Positions 1,104 to 49,360 of a DNA stretch of 64,000 nucleotides are shown piece after piece. The notes under the pieces are model-generated. The model searched no databases. It was not told the DNA's origin and worked only from the letters and a program-made list of their open reading frames with translations. The number at the start of each line of letters is the position of its first letter. Positions within the stretch are counted from its first letter, which is position 1. The position numbers and the translations under genes are program-made. The DNA is from Escherichia phage vB_EcoM-BECP11. The stretch lies in sequence record MW286157.1. One strand, given 5' to 3'.

Positions 1104-1125
1104 AGGGCTTCGGCCCTTTAGCTTT
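1103..1125 (+). terminator. hairpin aagggc-ttcg-gccctt followed by U-rich tract
   Basis: GC stem with TTCG loop directly after a-gt stop. Confidence 0.55.
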
Positions 1126-5123: not shown

Positions 5124-5810
5124 ATGAAACTGTCTAAAGATACTACTGCTCTGCTTAAAAATTTCGCTACTATTAACTCTGGCATTATGCTTAAATCTGG
5201 TCAATTTATTATGACTCGCGCAGTTAATGGTACAACTTATGCGGAAGCAAATATTTCTGACACCATTGATTTTGATGTAGCAATTTACGATTTGAACGGT
5301 TTTCTCGGTATTCTGTCCCTAGTTAATGACGATGCAGAAATTTCCCAGTCAGAAGATGGAAATATTAAAATTGCTGATGCTCGTTCAACAATTTTTTGGC
5401 CAGCAGCCGATCCGAGTACAGTAGTTGCTCCTAATAAACCAATTCCATTCCCGGTAGCATCTGTTGTTACTGAAATTAAAGCTGAAGACCTTCAACAACT
5501 GTTGCGTGTATCTCGTGGTCTGCAGATTGATACAATTGCTATCACAGTAAAAGAAGGAAAAATCGTAATTAACGGTTTTAATAAAGTAGAAGATTCTGCT
5601 TTGACCCGCGTTAAATATTCTTTGACTCTTGGTGATTATGATGGTGAAAATACATTTAATTTCATTATCAATATGGCAAATATGAAAATGCAACCAGGAA
5701 ATTACAAACTTCTGCTTTGGGCAAAAGGCAAACAAGGCGCTGCTAAATTTGAAGGTGAACACGCGAATTATGTAGTAGCTCTTGAAGCTGATTCTACCCA
5801 CGATTTTTAA
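5124..5810 (+). CDS. 45: sliding clamp gp45
   Basis: 228 aa; MKLSKDTTALLKNFATINSGIMLKSGQFIMTRAV... matches recalled T4 gp45. Confidence 0.95.
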   Translation: MKLSKDTTALLKNFATINSGIMLKSGQFIMTRAVNGTTYAEANISDTIDFDVAIYDLNGFLGILSLVNDDAEISQSEDGNIKIADARSTIFWPAADPSTVVAPNKPIPFPVASVVTEIKAEDLQQLLRVSRGLQIDTIAITVKEGKIVINGFNKVEDSALTRVKYSLTLGDYDGENTFNFIINMANMKMQPGNYKLLLWAKGKQGAAKFEGEHANYVVALEADSTHDF

Positions 5811-5812
5811 TA

Positions 5813-5828
5813 AAGGGCTTCGGCCCTT
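5813..5828 (+). terminator. hairpin aagggcttcggccctt after gene 45 (weak or partial terminator)
   Basis: GC stem with TTCG loop; no strong U-tract. Confidence 0.4.
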
Positions 5829-6820: not shown

Positions 6821-7384
6821 ATGAGCTTATTTGAAGATGATATTCAATTAAACGAGCATCAAGTTGCTTGGTATTCAAAAGATTGGACAGCTGTCCAATC
6901 TGCTGCTGATTCTTTTAAGGAAAAAGCTGAAAATGAATTTTTTGAAATAATTGGAGCTATTAATAATAAAACTAAATGCTCTATTGCTCAAAAAGATTAT
7001 TCAAAATACATGGTTGAGAATGCATTATCACAATTTCCTGAATGCATGCCAGCTGTATATGCGATGAATTTAATTGGATCAGGTTTAAGCGATGAAGCCC
7101 ATTTTAATTATCTGATGGCTGCTGTTCCTCGGGGTAAAAGATATGGTAAATGGGCAAAACTGGTCGAAGATTCTACCGAAGTATTGATTATTAAGTTACT
7201 TGCTAAGCGGTATCAAGTTAATACAAATGATGCAATTAACTATAAATCAATTCTTACTAAAAATGGAAAACTTCCTTTAGTATTAAAAGAACTAAAAGGT
7301 TTAGTCACGGATGATTTTTTGAAAGAAGTGACTAAGAACGTAAAAGAACAGAAACAACTCAAAAAACTAGCATTGGAATGGTAA
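6821..7384 (+). CDS. 62: clamp loader small subunit gp62
   Basis: 187 aa directly after gene 44, coupled start. Confidence 0.8.
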
Positions 7385-7980: not shown

Positions 7981-8003
7981 AGGGGCTTCGGCCCCTTATT
8001 TGG
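7981..8003 (+). terminator. hairpin aggggc-ttcg-gcccct
   Basis: GC stem with TTCG loop then tatttgg. Confidence 0.5.
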
Positions 8004-33865: not shown

Positions 33866-36043
33866 ATGATTATCACCACTGAAAAAGAAACAATTCTTGG
33901 TAATGGTTCTAAATCAAAAGCATTTAGCATCACAGCATCTCCTAAAGTATTTAAAATTCTGTCATCTGATTTGTATACAAACAAAATTCGCGCAGTAGTC
34001 CGTGAATTGATTACTAACATGATTGATGCCCATGCACTCAATGGAAATCCTGAAAAATTTATCATTCAAGTTCCTGGACGTTTAGATCCACGATTTGTTT
34101 GCCGAGATTTTGGTCCGGGTATGAGTGATTTTGATATTCAAGGTGATGATAATTCTCCTGGTTTGTATAATTCATACTTCAGTTCATCTAAGGCTGAATC
34201 TAACGATTTCATTGGCGGATTTGGTTTAGGTTCTAAATCTCCGTTTAGTTATACTGATACATTTAGTATTACTTCGTATCATAAAGGTGAAATTCGTGGT
34301 TATGTAGCTTACATGGATGGCGATGGTCCACAAATTAAACCTACATTCGTGAAAGAAATGGGTCCAGATGATAAAACTGGTATTGAAATCGTAGTTCCAG
34401 TTGAAGAAAAAGACTTTAGAAACTTTGCTTATGAAGTTTCTTATATCATGCGACCGTTCAAAGATTTGGCTATCATTAATGGTCTTGACCGCGAAATTGA
34501 TTATTTTCCGGATTTTGATGACTATTACGGTGTAAATCCAGAAAGATACTGGCCAGATCGTGGTGGATTATATGCTATCTATGGCGGTATTGTATATCCT
34601 ATCGATGGCGTTATTAGAGAGCGTAACTGGCTAAGCATTCGCAATGAAGTGAATTACATTAAGTTTCCAATGGGTTCGCTGGATATTGCTCCATCACGCG
34701 AAGCTCTTTCATTAGATGATCGCACTCGTAAAAATATTATTGAACGAGTTAAAGAACTCAGTGAGAAAGCATTTAATGAAGATGTAAAACGATTTAAAGA
34801 ATCTACATCTCCTCGTCATACATATCGTGAATTGATGAAGATGGGGTATTCTGCTCGAGATTATATGATTAGTAATTCAGTCAAATTCACGACTAAAAAT
34901 CTGTCATATAAGAAGATGCAGAGCATGTTTGAACCTGACAGTAAGTTATGCAATGCAGGAGTTGTGTATGAAGTAAATCTTGACCCTCGACTGAAACGCA
35001 TTAAGCAAAGTCATGAAACTTCAGCCGTTGCATCAAGTTATCGTCTGTTTGGCATTAATACAACAAAAATTAATATTGTTATTGATAATATTAAAAATCG
35101 TGTTAATATTGTCCGTGGATTAGCACATGCGCTAGATGATAGTGAATTTAATAACACTTTAAATATTCATCACAATGAGCGTCTTCTGTTTATTAATCCG
35201 GAAGTAGAATCGCAGATTGATTTACTACCTGATATTATGGCAATGTTTGAAAGTGATGAAGTTAACATTCATTATTTGTCAGAAATTGAAGCTTTAGTTA
35301 AAAGCTATATTCCAAAGGTAGTTAAAAGTAAAGCTCCTCGTCCTAAAGCTGCTACAGCATTTAAGTTTGAAATTAAAGATGGGCGATGGGAAAAAGAGGA
35401 ACTATTTACACTTACGTCAGAAGCAGATGAAATTACTGGTTATGTAGCGTACATGCATCGTTCTGATATTTTCTCTATGGATGGTACTACATCGCTTTGT
35501 CATCCATCTATGAATATTTTGATTCGTATGGCTAATCTTATTGGCATTAATGAATTTTATGTTATTCGTCCGCTTTTACAGAAAAAGGTAAAAGAACTCG
35601 GTCAGTGCCAATGTATTTTTGAAGCTTTGCGTGATTTATATGTAGATGCTTTTGATGATGTAGATTATGATAAGTATGTAGGTTATTCAAGTTCAGCTCA
35701 ACGATATATTGATAAAATTATCAAGCATCCTGAATTAGATTTTATGATGAAGTACTTCAGTACAGATGAAGTTTCTGAAGAATATACACGACTCGCTAAT
35801 ATAGTTAGTTCATTGCGCGGTGTATATTTTAATGGTGGAAAAGATACCATCGGTCATGACATCTGGACAGTAACTAATCTTTTTGATGTATTATCAAATA
35901 ATGCTTCAAAAAACAGTGATAAAATGGTTGCTGAGTTTACCAAGAAATTCCGTATTGTTTCCGACTTCATCGGTTATCGCAGCTCTTTAAGCGATGATGA
36001 AGTCTCCCAAATCGCTAAAACTATGAAGGCCCTTGCGGCCTAA
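33866..36043 (+). CDS. rIIA: rIIA protein
   Basis: 725 aa; N-terminal GHKL-like ATPase region; size equals T4 rIIA; followed by rIIB. Confidence 0.9.
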
Positions 36044-36054
36044 TAAGGAAAATT

Positions 36055-36993
36055 ATGTACAATATTAAATGCCTGACCAAAAATGAACAAGCTGAAATTG
36101 TTAAACTGTATTCAAGCGGTAATTATACTCAGCAAGAATTGGCTGATTGGCAAGGTGTATCGGTTGATACAATCCGTCGTGTTTTGAAAAATGCTGAAGA
36201 AGCTAAACACTCTAAAATTACTATTAGCGGTGATATTACAGTTAAAGTTAATAGCGATGCAGTTATTGCTCCAGTTGCTAAATCTGACATTATTTGGAAT
36301 GCATCTAAAAAATTCATTTCGATTACTGTTGATGGTGTAACTTATAATGCAACACCTAATACTCATTCAAACTTCCAGGAAATTCTTAATCTGCTCGTAG
36401 CGGATAAGCTGGAAGAAGCAGCACAAAAAATTAATGTTCGCCGCGCTGTTGAAAAATATATTTCCGGCGATGTTCGAATTGAAGGTGGAAGCTTATTCTA
36501 TCAAAATATTGAATTGCGGTCTGGTTTGGTTGATCGTATTCTTGATTCGATGGAAAAAGGCGAAAACTTTGAATTTTATTTTCCGTTCTTGGAAAATCTG
36601 CTGGAAAATCCAAGCCAGAAAGCGGTATCTCGACTCTTTGATTTCTTGGTAGCAAACGATATTGAAATTACAGAAGATGGTTACTTCTATGCTTGGAAAG
36701 TAGTTCGTAGCAATTACTTTGATTGTCACTCAAACACTTTTGATAACAGTCCTGGTAAAGTAGTTAAAATGCCGCGTACTCGCGTAAATGACGATGATAC
36801 ACAAACTTGTTCTCGCGGTTTGCATGTATGTTCTAAATCTTATATTCGTCACTTCGGTGGTTCAACTAGTCGAGTTGTAAAAGTTAAAGTTCATCCACGT
36901 GATGTAGTATCAATTCCGATTGATTACAACGATGCTAAAATGCGTACCTGCCAATACGAAGTAGTTGAAGACGTTACTGAACAATTTAAATAA
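36055..36993 (+). CDS. rIIB: rIIB protein
   Basis: 312 aa following rIIA. Confidence 0.9.
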   Translation: MYNIKCLTKNEQAEIVKLYSSGNYTQQELADWQGVSVDTIRRVLKNAEEAKHSKITISGDITVKVNSDAVIAPVAKSDIIWNASKKFISITVDGVTYNATPNTHSNFQEILNLLVADKLEEAAQKINVRRAVEKYISGDVRIEGGSLFYQNIELRSGLVDRILDSMEKGENFEFYFPFLENLLENPSQKAVSRLFDFLVANDIEITEDGYFYAWKVVRSNYFDCHSNTFDNSPGKVVKMPRTRVNDDDTQTCSRGLHVCSKSYIRHFGGSTSRVVKVKVHPRDVVSIPIDYNDAKMRTCQYEVVEDVTEQFK

Positions 36994-37007
36994 GGGCTTC
37001 GGCCCTT
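36992..37007 (+). terminator. hairpin aagggc-ttcg-gccctt overlapping rIIB stop
   Basis: GC stem with TTCG loop; weak U-tract. Confidence 0.45.
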
Positions 37008-37021
37008 AACTAAGGAAAATT

Positions 37022-37216
37022 ATGTTAGGTTATCAAGCACGAGTAAAAGAAGAATACGATCAATTAATGCTCAAAATTAATGCACTGAGCAAATTTTTAG
37101 AAAGCACAAAGTTTCTAACAGTTAGTGCAGTTGAGCAAGAATTACTGCTTTCACAGTTCATCTCAATGAAATCTTATGCTGAATGTCTAGAGAAAAGAAT
37201 TGCACAATTCAAATAA
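37022..37216 (+). CDS. hypothetical helical protein, 64 aa
   Basis: ORF bracketed by two copies of the same hairpin motif. Confidence 0.45.
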   Translation: MLGYQARVKEEYDQLMLKINALSKFLESTKFLTVSAVEQELLLSQFISMKSYAECLEKRIAQFK

Positions 37217-37218
37217 AT

Positions 37219-37241
37219 AAGGGCTTCGGCCCTTTTGTTTT
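37219..37241 (+). terminator. rho-independent terminator aagggc-ttcg-gccctt plus ttttgtttt
   Basis: stem-loop followed by T-run. Confidence 0.7.
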
Positions 37242-37252
37242 AAGGAAAAATT

Positions 37253-37582
37253 ATGATTTATTGTATGAATATCGGCGATTCCGACATAAAAGAGATTAAA
37301 CTGCACGGAAATCATCACGCTAATATTGTGTACTGTAATAAATTTGAGTTTGGTCACGAAAAACTTGGGTTTCTTTACTGTAATGATGTTATAGTCATGG
37401 ATAAAAAGGAGCTCGATGAACTTGACCTCGAGTCTTTAGATGAAAATGACCGAATTTATTATGGTACTCTTAAAGTATATAACGCTTATCTCGGTGGTAA
37501 AAAGGAAAGTCTAAATGCAGAAAACGAATCCGGGTTTACAGAGACTATTTCAGATTCCGACATTTACCCTATCGAACAGTGA
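37253..37582 (+). CDS. hypothetical protein, 109 aa
   Basis: ATG 37253; overlaps denB start. Confidence 0.45.
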   Translation: MIYCMNIGDSDIKEIKLHGNHHANIVYCNKFEFGHEKLGFLYCNDVIVMDKKELDELDLESLDENDRIYYGTLKVYNAYLGGKKESLNAENESGFTETISDSDIYPIEQ

Positions 37583-38072
37583 TTTGACTAGTGAAATGAA
37601 GGTCAAAATTGCTGATACTGCGAGATACTCTTTAAAACAAAATCCAAACCAGGATAAGGCTGAGGTCATCGAAAGATGTCGTATCGCAGTGTATGCTGAG
37701 TATGTTGTAGCAGATTGGTTAAGTGGGTATGTTAACAAAGGTCAAGAAGACGTCGATGATCCGTATACATATGCATGGGATGTTTTAGCACATCCAAAAT
37801 ACTGCGGGCTTCGGGTAGAAGTTAAAACACACCAAACTGACTCTCGATGGATTTCAGTAACGACAGGACACAGCGGAGAGTATCCATACGGTTCTGGAAT
37901 AAATCTAGGGCCCATTCTAAATCATCAAGTCGCTGACTGTATAATTATATTCAACACTAAAGAAATTCATCCAGGTGTCATCCAGTACACTCCGAAGTTC
38001 ATCGGTGACAGAGAAGACCTTCGTAAGGTTGTAAGAAAAAGCAACTACAACGGATGGTATCTTTCCATTTAA
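37515..38072 (+). CDS. denB: endonuclease IV DenB
   Basis: 185 aa at the T4 denB position next to rIIB. Confidence 0.7.
   Translation: MQKTNPGLQRLFQIPTFTLSNSDLTSEMKVKIADTARYSLKQNPNQDKAEVIERCRIAVYAEYVVADWLSGYVNKGQEDVDDPYTYAWDVLAHPKYCGLRVEVKTHQTDSRWISVTTGHSGEYPYGSGINLGPILNHQVADCIIIFNTKEIHPGVIQYTPKFIGDREDLRKVVRKSNYNGWYLSI

Positions 38073-45219: not shown

Positions 45220-49360
<4,141 letters not shown>

Follow-up and report, generated by a model that had tools for sequence, protein, structure and literature searches.

We analyzed a window of 64,000 nt from Escherichia phage vB_EcoM-BECP11 (MW286157.1), a T4-like phage genome of the genus Tequatrovirus, in which the interval between rIIB and denB holds a 64-aa ORF, denB.1, and a gene of the DUF7418 family, with one UUCG hairpin on either side of denB.1 (H1 and H2; Table 1). 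Of the T4-like loci recovered, 31 carried denB.1, and every one of them had the gene order rIIB, denB.1, DUF7418 and denB. The 14-mer TAAGGAAAATTATG that precedes rIIB is identical to the 14-mer preceding denB.1. The DUF7418 gene is intact in the window phage and in approximately half of the Tequatroviruses, and in T4 it lacks 213 nt (37288-37500 in window numbering), the deletion having its endpoints at ATAAAAG and GTAAAAAG.

Table 1 Features of the rIIB-denB interval and further copies of the hairpin core in the window
Feature	Position	Strand	Remarks
rIIB translation initiation region, TAAGGAAAATTATG	36044..36057	+	without hairpin
rIIB CDS	36055..36993	+	312 aa; from the ORF list; 98-100% identity to Tequatrovirus rIIB
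rIIB stop TAA	36991-36993	+	makes the base of hairpin 1
Hairpin 1 (H1), UAAGGGC-UUCG-GCCCUUA	36991..37008	+	7-bp stem, UUCG tetraloop
denB.1 translation initiation region	37011..37024	+	Shine-Dalgarno TAAGGAAAA, then ATG
denB.1	37022..37216	+	64 aa; PF21825 / phrog_774 protein; stop 37214-37216
Hairpin 2 (H2), AAGGGC-UUCG-GCCCUU	37219..37234	+	6-bp stem, UUCG tetraloop
U-tract UUUUGUUUU	37233..37241	+	3' of and overlapping the H2 3' arm; from sequence and terminator scan
DUF7418 gene translation initiation region, TAAGGAAAAATTATG	37241..37255	+	
DUF7418 gene, PF24193	37253..37582	+	109 aa
denB, endonuclease IV	37515..38072	+	185 aa; 68-nt overlap with the end of the DUF7418 gene
GGGCTTCGGCCC copy	1105..1116	+	directly 3' of the a-gt stop (a-gt as named in the original prediction)
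GGGCTTCGGCCC copy	5815..5826	+	2 nt past the stop of a 228-aa ORF (gene 45)
GGGCTTCGGCCC core copy, stem AAGGGGC	7983..7994	+	58 nt upstream of an 898-aa ORF (DNA polymerase size)
GGGCTTCGGCCC core copy	46013..46024	-	3 nt past the stop of a 1109-aa ORF

By its sequence, the 64-aa ORF is denB.1, a known T4 accessory gene, and the same ORF is annotated as denB.1 in T4, RB51 and PP01. Its product matched PF21825 (crAss001_48-related protein) with 69 bits against a Pfam gathering cut-off of 24.8, residues 4-61 aligning with positions 3-60 of the 61 in the profile, and matched phrog_774 in PHROGs (E = 2e-22). An AlphaFold2 model of the product was a generic helical hairpin (mean pLDDT 95) for which no significant fold match was found, and a search by sequence for relatives of solved structure returned none. 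In addition, a rough denB.1 tree agreed with the tree of rIIB and denB. These data are consistent with denB.1 being a long-resident accessory early gene of the non-essential region from rIIB to gene 52 in T4-like phages.

The original prediction read this gene as a cassette bracketed by direct repeats of a junction made of a stop codon, a hairpin and a ribosome-binding site, and the repeat itself was confirmed. The exact 20-mer AAATAAGGGCTTCGGCCCTT lies at 36988-37007 and again at 37215-37234, TAAGGAAAA (37011-37019 and 37241-37249) and then ATG (37022 and 37253) stand downstream of both copies, and the 64-aa ORF at 37022-37216 is the one small ORF between the copies. In 100 shuffles the expected number of matches to the 20-mer was 0, but shuffled sequence is the wrong null for such a repeat. 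The window contains 11 stable CUUCGG hairpins, nine of which begin within 6 nt of the stop codon of the upstream ORF, and the 12-mer core GGGCTTCGGCCC, found in six of the 11, is the commonest stem variant of this genome, so that two adjacent junctions sharing this core is not improbable (about 0.27). Moreover, the similarity of the two junctions is modular, and the stop codons stand in different registers to it. The TAA contained in the first copy of the 20-mer ends rIIB, whereas that in the second copy (37218-37220) is not the denB.1 stop, which lies at 37214-37216, one base out of step with the 20-mer. As for TAAGGAAAA, it is the local consensus ribosome-binding site and is also present, without a hairpin, between rIIA and rIIB (36044-36052).

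Upstream of both hairpins lies CAATTYAAATAA, and the rIIB and denB.1 proteins both end in QFK*, which could be read as a trace of duplication. We rejected this reading and regard the shared ends as a coincidence, because EQF also ends the Dhakavirus rIIB (EQFANEYKY*) and because the conserved ending of denB.1-family proteins is RIxxF.

Intercistronic hairpins with C(UUCG)G tetraloops were reportedly described in phage T4 mRNA by Tuerk et al. in 1988. H1 and H2 have the same C-UUCG-G loop on a short G+C stem (GGGC-UUCG-GCCC in both) and likewise lie on the sense strand, between genes and right after stop codons, the rIIB stop being within the stem of H1 and H2 beginning 2 nt past the denB.1 stop. 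No difference from the T4 hairpins was found, and both are ordinary members of this class. The UUCG tetraloop was first found in T4 mRNA (Hall 2015, PMC4371310). That the same hairpin also closes a-gt and gene 45, as the original prediction had noticed, was borne out, the form AATAAAGGGCTTCGGCCCTT being present at 1099-1118 and 5809-5828, and the copy after alpha-gt has been catalogued as the alpha-gt terminator (PMC5931544). Two more copies of the core, at 7983 on the + strand and at 46013 on the - strand, had been overlooked; the latter indicates that the motif occurs in both transcription directions.

The two hairpins differ in what follows them. The predicted folding energy is -10.1 kcal/mol for H1 (18 nt, z -2.7) and -8.8 kcal/mol for H2 (16 nt, z -2.5). 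Like the Rho-independent terminators catalogued for T4-type phages, of which 34 are given for T4 (Miller et al. 2003, as cited in PMC5931544), H2 is a G+C hairpin followed by a U-tract, with the tail TTGTTTTAAG; the terminator scan called it on the + strand. In contrast, the coding-strand tail of H1, AACTAAGG, contains no U-tract, and the scan called H1 solely on the - strand. Both hairpins are on record as predicted terminators (PMC5931544; annotation of phage G4507), and Table 2 of the former includes H2 (CAAATAAATAAGGGCTTCGGCCCTTTTGTTTTAA) among the predicted terminators of phage UFV13, under the name 'denB.1'. A search of the accessible literature for mapping of T4 3' ends or terminators returned nothing usable. 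H2 with UUUUGUUUU is a predicted intrinsic terminator or attenuator ahead of DUF7418 and denB. A hairpin stands at the rIIB stop in 48 of 51 T4-like loci, regardless of the next gene. Its stem shows compensatory changes, with both-sided changes in 6 of 7 stem pairs, and its covariation score was 0.53 compared with 0.20 in shuffles, in an alignment whose paired-cell percentage is inflated by construction since the hairpins were chosen by a stem finder. On this comparison of sequences, H1 is tied to rIIB and not to denB.1, and it may be viewed as the 3' hairpin of the rIIB message. As H1 lacks a U-tract, it is probably a stabilizer of the 3' end of that transcript or a weak attenuator, and not a strong terminator.

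Within Tequatrovirus, denB.1 is fixed, even though laboratory deletions show the gene to be dispensable. Its DNA was matched by 496 phage records and its flanks by 497, and the lone record with flanks and without denB.1 is X04376, a T4 sequence from which 2.73 kb, denB.1 to 52.1, is gone, so that rIIB is joined directly to gene 52 at an AAA within two ribosome-binding sites. The two junctions around the gene have drifted independently: the second junction of T4 reads AATAAAGGGC...AAGAGAAATT, unlike that of the window; a UUUG loop occurs in two relatives, in H1 only; and Sf22-type phages carry a 4-nt insertion 3' of H1 only. Since the junctions diverge independently around a gene that is universal in the genus, nothing points to an insertion or duplication in recent times, and the suggestion that the arrangement looks like one was not upheld at this level. 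Concerted evolution of H1 and H2 was also considered and was dismissed because the UUUG variant is limited to H1. A search of viral contigs for the junction predicted from a deletion between the hairpins gave no exact match, at low power, as only about 5 Tequatrovirus loci came from these contigs. When a synthetic 80-nt junction was compared with phage records by megablast, all of the best 12 matches consisted of two pieces approximately 307 nt apart, which is the normal layout; because megablast joins two such pieces, coverage does not discriminate in this comparison.

That stem-loop junctions recombine and thereby shuffle small ORFs, the mechanism put forward in the original prediction, is the same idea as that of the PeSL (promoter-early stem-loop) elements, mobile regulatory cassettes of T4-type phages, each of which consists of a strong sigma70-like early promoter and a stem-loop (Arbiol et al. 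2010, PMC2839356). Applied to our locus, denB.1 with its flanking hairpins would be a promoter-less PeSL-like cassette. A crossover between the two near-identical hairpins would remove the gene, perhaps in the form of a mini-circle, leaving one hairpin, while the reverse reaction would insert it, and the two-hairpin state seen here would be either ancestral or the immediate product of an insertion. The layout is that of the PeSL loci (PMC2839356; Comeau et al. 2014, PMC4122927), with the upstream stop in an AT-rich context, a stem-loop, a Shine-Dalgarno sequence and a small gene that starts just after it, all within a hyperplastic region, and the stem-loop stands between stop and Shine-Dalgarno/start, as in PeSLs. 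Moreover, nearby PeSL cassettes recombine and form mini-circles in RB49 and phi1 (PMC2839356), and the same mechanism has been proposed to account for the ndd.4/ndd.5 exchange, close to this locus, between T4 and PST (PMC4122927). However, only 13 nt (H1) and 18 nt (H2) lie between stem and ATG, a promoter scan found no + strand site at 36987-37252, the presence/absence of PeSL cassettes between close relatives is not seen for denB.1, and none of the approximately 497 Tequatrovirus records has lost the gene by hairpin exchange. The independent drift of the junctions likewise shows no homogenization.

Comparison across genera gave a more varied picture. denB.1 is either there in full or missing altogether, a difference seen between genera only, and the rIIB-denB interval takes at least five configurations of genes and hairpins across T4-like genera. 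The gene content of the whole rIIB-to-52 region also varies between genera, and the region is deletable, as in X04376; a large deletion from gp52.1 to rIIB has been reported in T4 (PMC9712115). The state with two hairpins occurs in three distant clades, namely Tequatrovirus, Winklervirus-like phages (L064 and L066) and L079, and could thus be ancestral; the stems of H1 and H2 are identical in Tequatrovirus only. Dhaka-, Gapriver-, Kanagawa- and Marfavirus-like phages have denB.1 with the upstream hairpin alone, and there the denB.1 stop either overlaps the following ATG or is separated from it by no more than 7 nt. Translational coupling of denB.1 and the DUF7418 gene is found in several other genera. 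The clade L058-L060 has denB.1 with the downstream hairpin alone. In L091, a T4-like locus from metagenomic data, the same site between two near-identical hairpins is occupied by another ORF, which has a promoter-like sequence.

The empty site foreseen in the original prediction, consisting of rIIB, a single hairpin and the next gene, exists. RB69 (Mosigvirus) and at least three other clades without denB.1 (CC31-like phages, L056 and L062-65) retain exactly one hairpin, as excision between the hairpins predicts.

Recombination between hairpins gains from these configurations, because there are at least four clades with an empty site and one hairpin, because the upstream-only, downstream-only and double forms can each be reached from the two-hairpin state by simple deletions, and because this state recurs in three distant clades and a different ORF sits between hairpins in L091. 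Yet a viable whole-gene deletion must end in intergenic junctions, so that a single surviving hairpin is expected under any mechanism. The gain/loss boundaries of the single-hairpin denB.1 lineages lie at overlaps of start and stop codons and not at hairpins: when sister clades are compared, the boundary between Marfavirus and L062-65 resembles an ATG-to-ATG event downstream of the single hairpin, and that between L058-60 and L056 or the CC31-like phages resembles a stop-to-stop event upstream of it. Nor did spacer similarity tell whether the hairpin surviving in RB69 is H1 or H2, since the U-rich, Shine-Dalgarno-containing spacers from hairpin to ATG were 60-85% alike whatever the category. 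What stands of the proposed shuffling is that genes come and go one by one in this interval, with the hairpins as candidate crossover sites at most. Likewise, the proposed comparison across relatives bore out the idea in part between genera, and within the genus it returned the outcome that had been named as speaking against it, a universal ORF with diverged flanks. We consider it unlikely that denB.1 is a PeSL-like cassette moved by its hairpins. The fuller version, in which UUCG hairpins serve both as RNA signals and as DNA crossover sites, the two-hairpin form is ancestral and denB.1 was excised independently at least four times (Mosigvirus, CC31-like, L056 and L062-65), appears equally doubtful.

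The absence of a hairpin after denB.1 in the Dhaka-, Gapriver-, Kanagawa- and Marfavirus-like loci, together with the restriction of identical H1/H2 stems to Tequatrovirus, could also suggest that H2 and its ribosome-binding site were copied from the rIIB|denB.1 junction, or from another GGGC hairpin, and pasted between denB.1 and DUF7418 in the Tequatrovirus ancestor. Such a local duplication seems very improbable to us. The core shared by H1 and H2 is the commonest hairpin of the genome (6/11), and the identity beyond the 16-nt hairpin is short, does not keep register with the stop codons, and is less pronounced in T4 than in the window. In addition, a hairpin with a U-rich spacer before the DUF7418 ATG is widespread (RB69, CC31-like, L056 and L058-60) and looks older than the genus, and L066, from a distant clade, has the same AAGGGCTTCGGCCCTT after denB.1.

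Taken together, the bracket around denB.1 probably represents two separate intercistronic punctuation modules rather than a scar left by an insertion or duplication in the recent past. The resemblance of the two modules would come from three shared signals, each under its own constraint: a TAA stop with A-rich surroundings, a minimal G+C stem capped by the extra-stable C(UUCG)G tetraloop, and the consensus Shine-Dalgarno AAGGAAA at its spacing from the ATG. Both hairpins would act in the mRNA, and the bracketed appearance would be a side effect of an arrangement in which hairpins stand between single genes. Whole genes have been lost and gained here over deep time, with endpoints in the short signals repeated at the junctions, namely start/stop overlaps, the ribosome-binding site and the hairpin, the last of which does not stand out as the preferred crossover site. 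This implies that in genomes of T4-type phages convergent gene punctuation alone can surround a small gene with a striking direct repeat, and that such brackets should be tested against relatives before they are read as insertion scars. The configurations of the rIIB-denB interval form a small usable data set, and the interval is a compact site for testing whether stem-loops or any microhomology guide gene loss in hyperplastic regions.

Deletions between short direct repeats are known in T4 from the classical rII deletion studies. A perfect 20-nt direct repeat with copies 227 nt apart is a plausible substrate for T4 slippage or short-homology recombination, so that some excision from hairpin to hairpin is expected, and such recombination may underlie old losses of denB.1. 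The two T4 deletions seen at this locus, the 213-nt deletion in the DUF7418 gene and that of X04376, have microhomology endpoints as well; both used other microhomologies, which argues against hairpin-mediated shuffling, and neither ended in the 20-nt hairpin repeat.

The repeats flanking the 64-aa ORF are the usual punctuation between T4 genes, here on both sides of an accessory gene that is already known. The window is from a Tequatrovirus, with 98% identity at the locus to Escherichia phage Ec_O157kw, and the ORF is the gene named denB.1 in the T4, RB51 and PP01 annotations. Its product matched Pfam PF21825 ('crAss001_48 related', 69 bits) and phrog_774, with remote homologues in crAss-like, Pseudomonas and Sinorhizobium phages. 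A helical hairpin was predicted with confidence by single-sequence AlphaFold2 (mean pLDDT 95), and no significant match was found in the PDB by fold or by sequence. Downstream, denB starts 68 nt within the 3' end of the DUF7418 gene (37515-37582) in a different frame. This overlap is retained in many genera (Dhakavirus-like, CC31-like and others), which suggests conserved coupling or a conserved start-site arrangement; a later denB start was chosen in some annotations, e.g. RB69 and Ec_O157kw.

Features of the rIIB-denB region and the five configurations found among T4-like phages (H, hairpin; =, genes overlapping or nearly abutting; L numbers, T4-like comparison loci)
Feature	Position or gene order	Product or occurrence
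rIIA	33866-36043	725 aa
rIIB	36055-36993	312 aa
64-aa ORF (denB.1)	37022-37216	64 aa
DUF7418 gene	37253-37582	109 aa
denB	37515-38072	185 aa
X04376 junction	L093 500-545	window ~37020 joined to ~40197
State 0	rIIB-H-DUF7418-denB	RB69/Mosigvirus, CC31-like, L056, L062-65
State 1	rIIB-H-denB.1=DUF7418	Dhaka-, Gapriver-, Kanagawa-, Marfavirus-like
State 2	rIIB=denB.1-H-DUF7418	L058-60
State 3	rIIB-H-denB.1-H-DUF7418	Tequatrovirus, L064, L066; L079 without DUF7418
State 4	rIIB-H-denB	more distant phages

Along the + strand, the order is rIIB ...CAATTTAAATAA-GGGCTTCGGCCC-TTAACTAAGGAAAATT-ATG (64-aa ORF) ...CAATTCAAATAAATAA-GGGCTTCGGCCC-TTTTGTTTTAAGGAAAAATT-ATG (109-aa ORF). The original prediction correctly placed repeats on both sides of the 64-aa ORF: the 20-mer AAATAAGGGCTTCGGCCCTT occurs in exact copies at 36988-37007 and 37215-37234, each followed by TAAGGAAAA (at 37011 and 37241). 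The 20-mer recurs at 1099 and 5809 with two mismatches each, no such copies being expected in shuffles. rIIB terminates at the TAA within the first 20-mer; at the second, the denB.1 stop (37214-37216) is one base off and the internal TAA (37218-37220) is not the stop.

Eleven stable CUUCGG hairpins were found in the window, on both strands and sense to the adjoining genes; in nine cases, the hairpin begins no more than 6 nt from the stop codon of an upstream ORF (≥50 aa). The core GGGCTTCGGCCC is present in 6 of the 11 (+ strand 1105, 5815, 7983, 36994 and 37221; - strand 46013), and the chance of finding it at both of two given junctions is about 0.27. The copy at 46013-46024 closes a 1109-aa ORF 10 nt ahead of a 259-aa ORF; judging by size, these two are probably gene 37 (long tail fibre) and a gene 38 of the T2 type. 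TAAGGAAAATTATG also precedes rIIB, there without a hairpin, and thus three successive genes share one strong initiation region. TAAGGAAAA(A)TTATG starts rIIB, denB.1 and DUF7418 (36044-36057, 37011-37024 and 37241-37255); the four TAAGGAAAA copies in the window (2.05 expected) are not above chance, three being at these successive starts and the other at 6916.

Both hairpins are C(UUCG)G tetraloops, a class discovered first in T4 mRNA (PMC4371310). Their predicted stabilities are -10.1 kcal/mol (hairpin 1, after rIIB) and -8.8 kcal/mol (hairpin 2, after denB.1). Hairpin 2 is followed by UUUUGUUUU and scored as a coding-strand terminator, and hairpin 1 has no U-tract on the coding strand. Both are already predicted terminators in the annotation of Tequatrovirus phage G4507 and in the paper on the UFV13 genome, whose Table 2 puts the denB.1 hairpin on the coding strand and that of rIIB on the opposite one (PMC5931544). 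Their function most likely lies at the RNA level. Hairpin 1 may mark and protect rIIB messages at their 3' end or attenuate read-through, hairpin 2 with its U-tract would terminate or attenuate transcription upstream of DUF7418 and denB, and each downstream gene would be served by its own strong ribosome-binding site.

The two junctions do not evolve as mutual copies. At the second junction, T4 has AAGTAAAATAAAGGGC...TTTTGTTTTAAGAGAAATTATG, with a 5' flank and Shine-Dalgarno sequence unlike those of the first; in two relatives the loop of hairpin 1 is UUUG and that of hairpin 2 UUCG, and Sf22-type phages carry 4 additional nt after hairpin 1 only. The QFK* ending common to the rIIB and denB.1 proteins was considered as a sign of duplication and rejected as coincidental, because EQF is likewise present at the end of rIIB in Dhakavirus and the denB.1 C-terminus is conserved as RIxxF. 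Hairpin 1 (window 36991-37008) reads AAGGCTTCGGCCC in the T4 reference (NC_000866.4) and X04376, one G fewer than the AAGGGCTTCGGCCC shared by every other Tequatrovirus and by T4 as resequenced (OL964745); the reference probably carries a gel-compression error from early sequencing. Codon 3 of denB.1 differs as well (GCT vs GGT).

Within Tequatrovirus, denB.1 and both hairpins were present in T4, Sf22, G4507 and Ec_O157kw when aligned with the window. The denB.1 DNA matched 496 phage records, all over its full length at ≥90% identity, compared with 497 records for the last 196 nt of rIIB (≥90% identity) and 497 for a locus-spanning query. Thus denB.1 is near-universal, and the product that hairpin-to-hairpin recombination would leave was found in none of the ~497 sequenced Tequatrovirus records. 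The sole record to depart from this pattern of denB.1 presence is X04376, a 1,969-bp T4 sequence in which rIIB and hairpin 1 are followed by TTAACTAAGGAAA fused to TTTATG of gene 52, with 2.73 kb (denB.1 through 52.1) gone relative to NC_000866. The junction is an AAA common to both ribosome-binding sites, GGAAAATTATG and GGTAAATTTATG. The record does not give its origin, presumably a laboratory strain deleted in the rIIB-to-52 region. Together with a large gp52.1-rIIB deletion on record for T4 (PMC9712115), X04376 indicates that this region is dispensable in the laboratory; the retention of dispensable denB.1 by ~496 isolates implies selection in nature.

The polymorphic gene in the Tequatrovirus alignment is instead DUF7418 (PF24193), next after denB.1. 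It is intact in the window and ~231 of roughly 450-497 records, and lacks 213 nt (window 37288-37500) in T4, T2, RB-series phages and others, with endpoints at the short direct repeats ATAAAAG and GTAAAAAG. Because of this internal deletion, the 'intergenic' denB.1-denB spacer of T4 is a gene remnant. Sf22-type phages have lost 22 nt more, between TGATT repeats.

Across T4-like genera, loci were gathered by denB.1 alignment (26) and denB alignment (54), and reference records of RB69, RB49, IME08, PEi20, Marfa, F48 and Gravdalen were added. Of 51 loci, 48 have a stable hairpin, mostly C(UUCG)G, after the stop of rIIB, regardless of the next gene. Its stems vary by compensatory change (GGGC, GGAGGC, GGGGC, GGGGAC, GGAGAC, AAGGGCC and others), with both-side changes in 6 of 7 pairs and a covariation score of 0.53 vs 0.20 in shuffles, the sequences having been chosen by a stem finder, which inflates the percentage of paired cells. 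Therefore, hairpin 1 is an ancient property of the 3' end of rIIB rather than of a denB.1 cassette. State 1 has denB.1 translationally coupled to DUF7418 and no second hairpin. In state 0, denB.1 is truly absent, as rIIB and the next gene are just 38-63 nt apart; the RB69 site reads ...GAATAATAATT-GGGGACTTCGGTCCCC-TTTTTTCTTTAGGGGTAATT-ATGATT. In L058-L060 (~885-1140), rIIB shares 1-16 nt with denB.1, and a lone hairpin stands 3' of denB.1, on the opposite side from that in Dhaka- and Marfavirus-like phages. A rough neighbour-joining tree of rIIB and denB, crude and midpoint-rooted, joined Mosigvirus and Tequatrovirus as sister groups and left the Dhaka- and Gapriver-like phages outside this pair, and the denB.1 tree was broadly congruent with it. 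On these crude trees, the simplest reading is that denB.1 arose once and was later lost independently four or more times.

Recombination between hairpins, proposed in the original prediction as a means of shuffling small genes, is itself the published promoter-early stem-loop (PeSL) model (PMC2839356; PMC4122927). The single-hairpin sites without denB.1 anticipated in that prediction do exist across genera, states 0, 1 and 2 are each derivable from state 3 through deletions, and state 3 recurs in three distant clades. However, viable whole-gene deletions must end in junctions, so that a surviving hairpin is expected under any mechanism, and that of RB69 was assignable by spacer comparison to neither hairpin 1 nor hairpin 2. 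Against a crossover at the hairpins, in two sister-clade comparisons the gain/loss boundaries lie away from them, apparently start-to-start downstream of the single hairpin (Marfavirus vs L062-65) and stop-to-stop upstream of it (L058-60 vs L056/CC31-like). Moreover, both deletions documented here, in DUF7418 and X04376, used other microhomologies, and the sigma70-like promoter that defines PeSLs was not found at the denB.1 locus in the window. The mechanism is thus unsupported for this genome, and we consider it an unlikely cause of the ancient denB.1 losses. In its favour, one metagenomic T4-like contig (L091, IMGVR_UViG_3300045988_066415) carries another ORF and a promoter-like sequence at the same site between two near-identical hairpins, a PeSL-like cassette in the place of denB.1. 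This cassette (~1150-1540, between rIIB and denB) is bracketed by GGGACTCTTCGGAGTCCC and GGACTCTTCGGAGTCC, and its small ORF, unrelated to denB.1, is preceded by TTTACA...TATACA.
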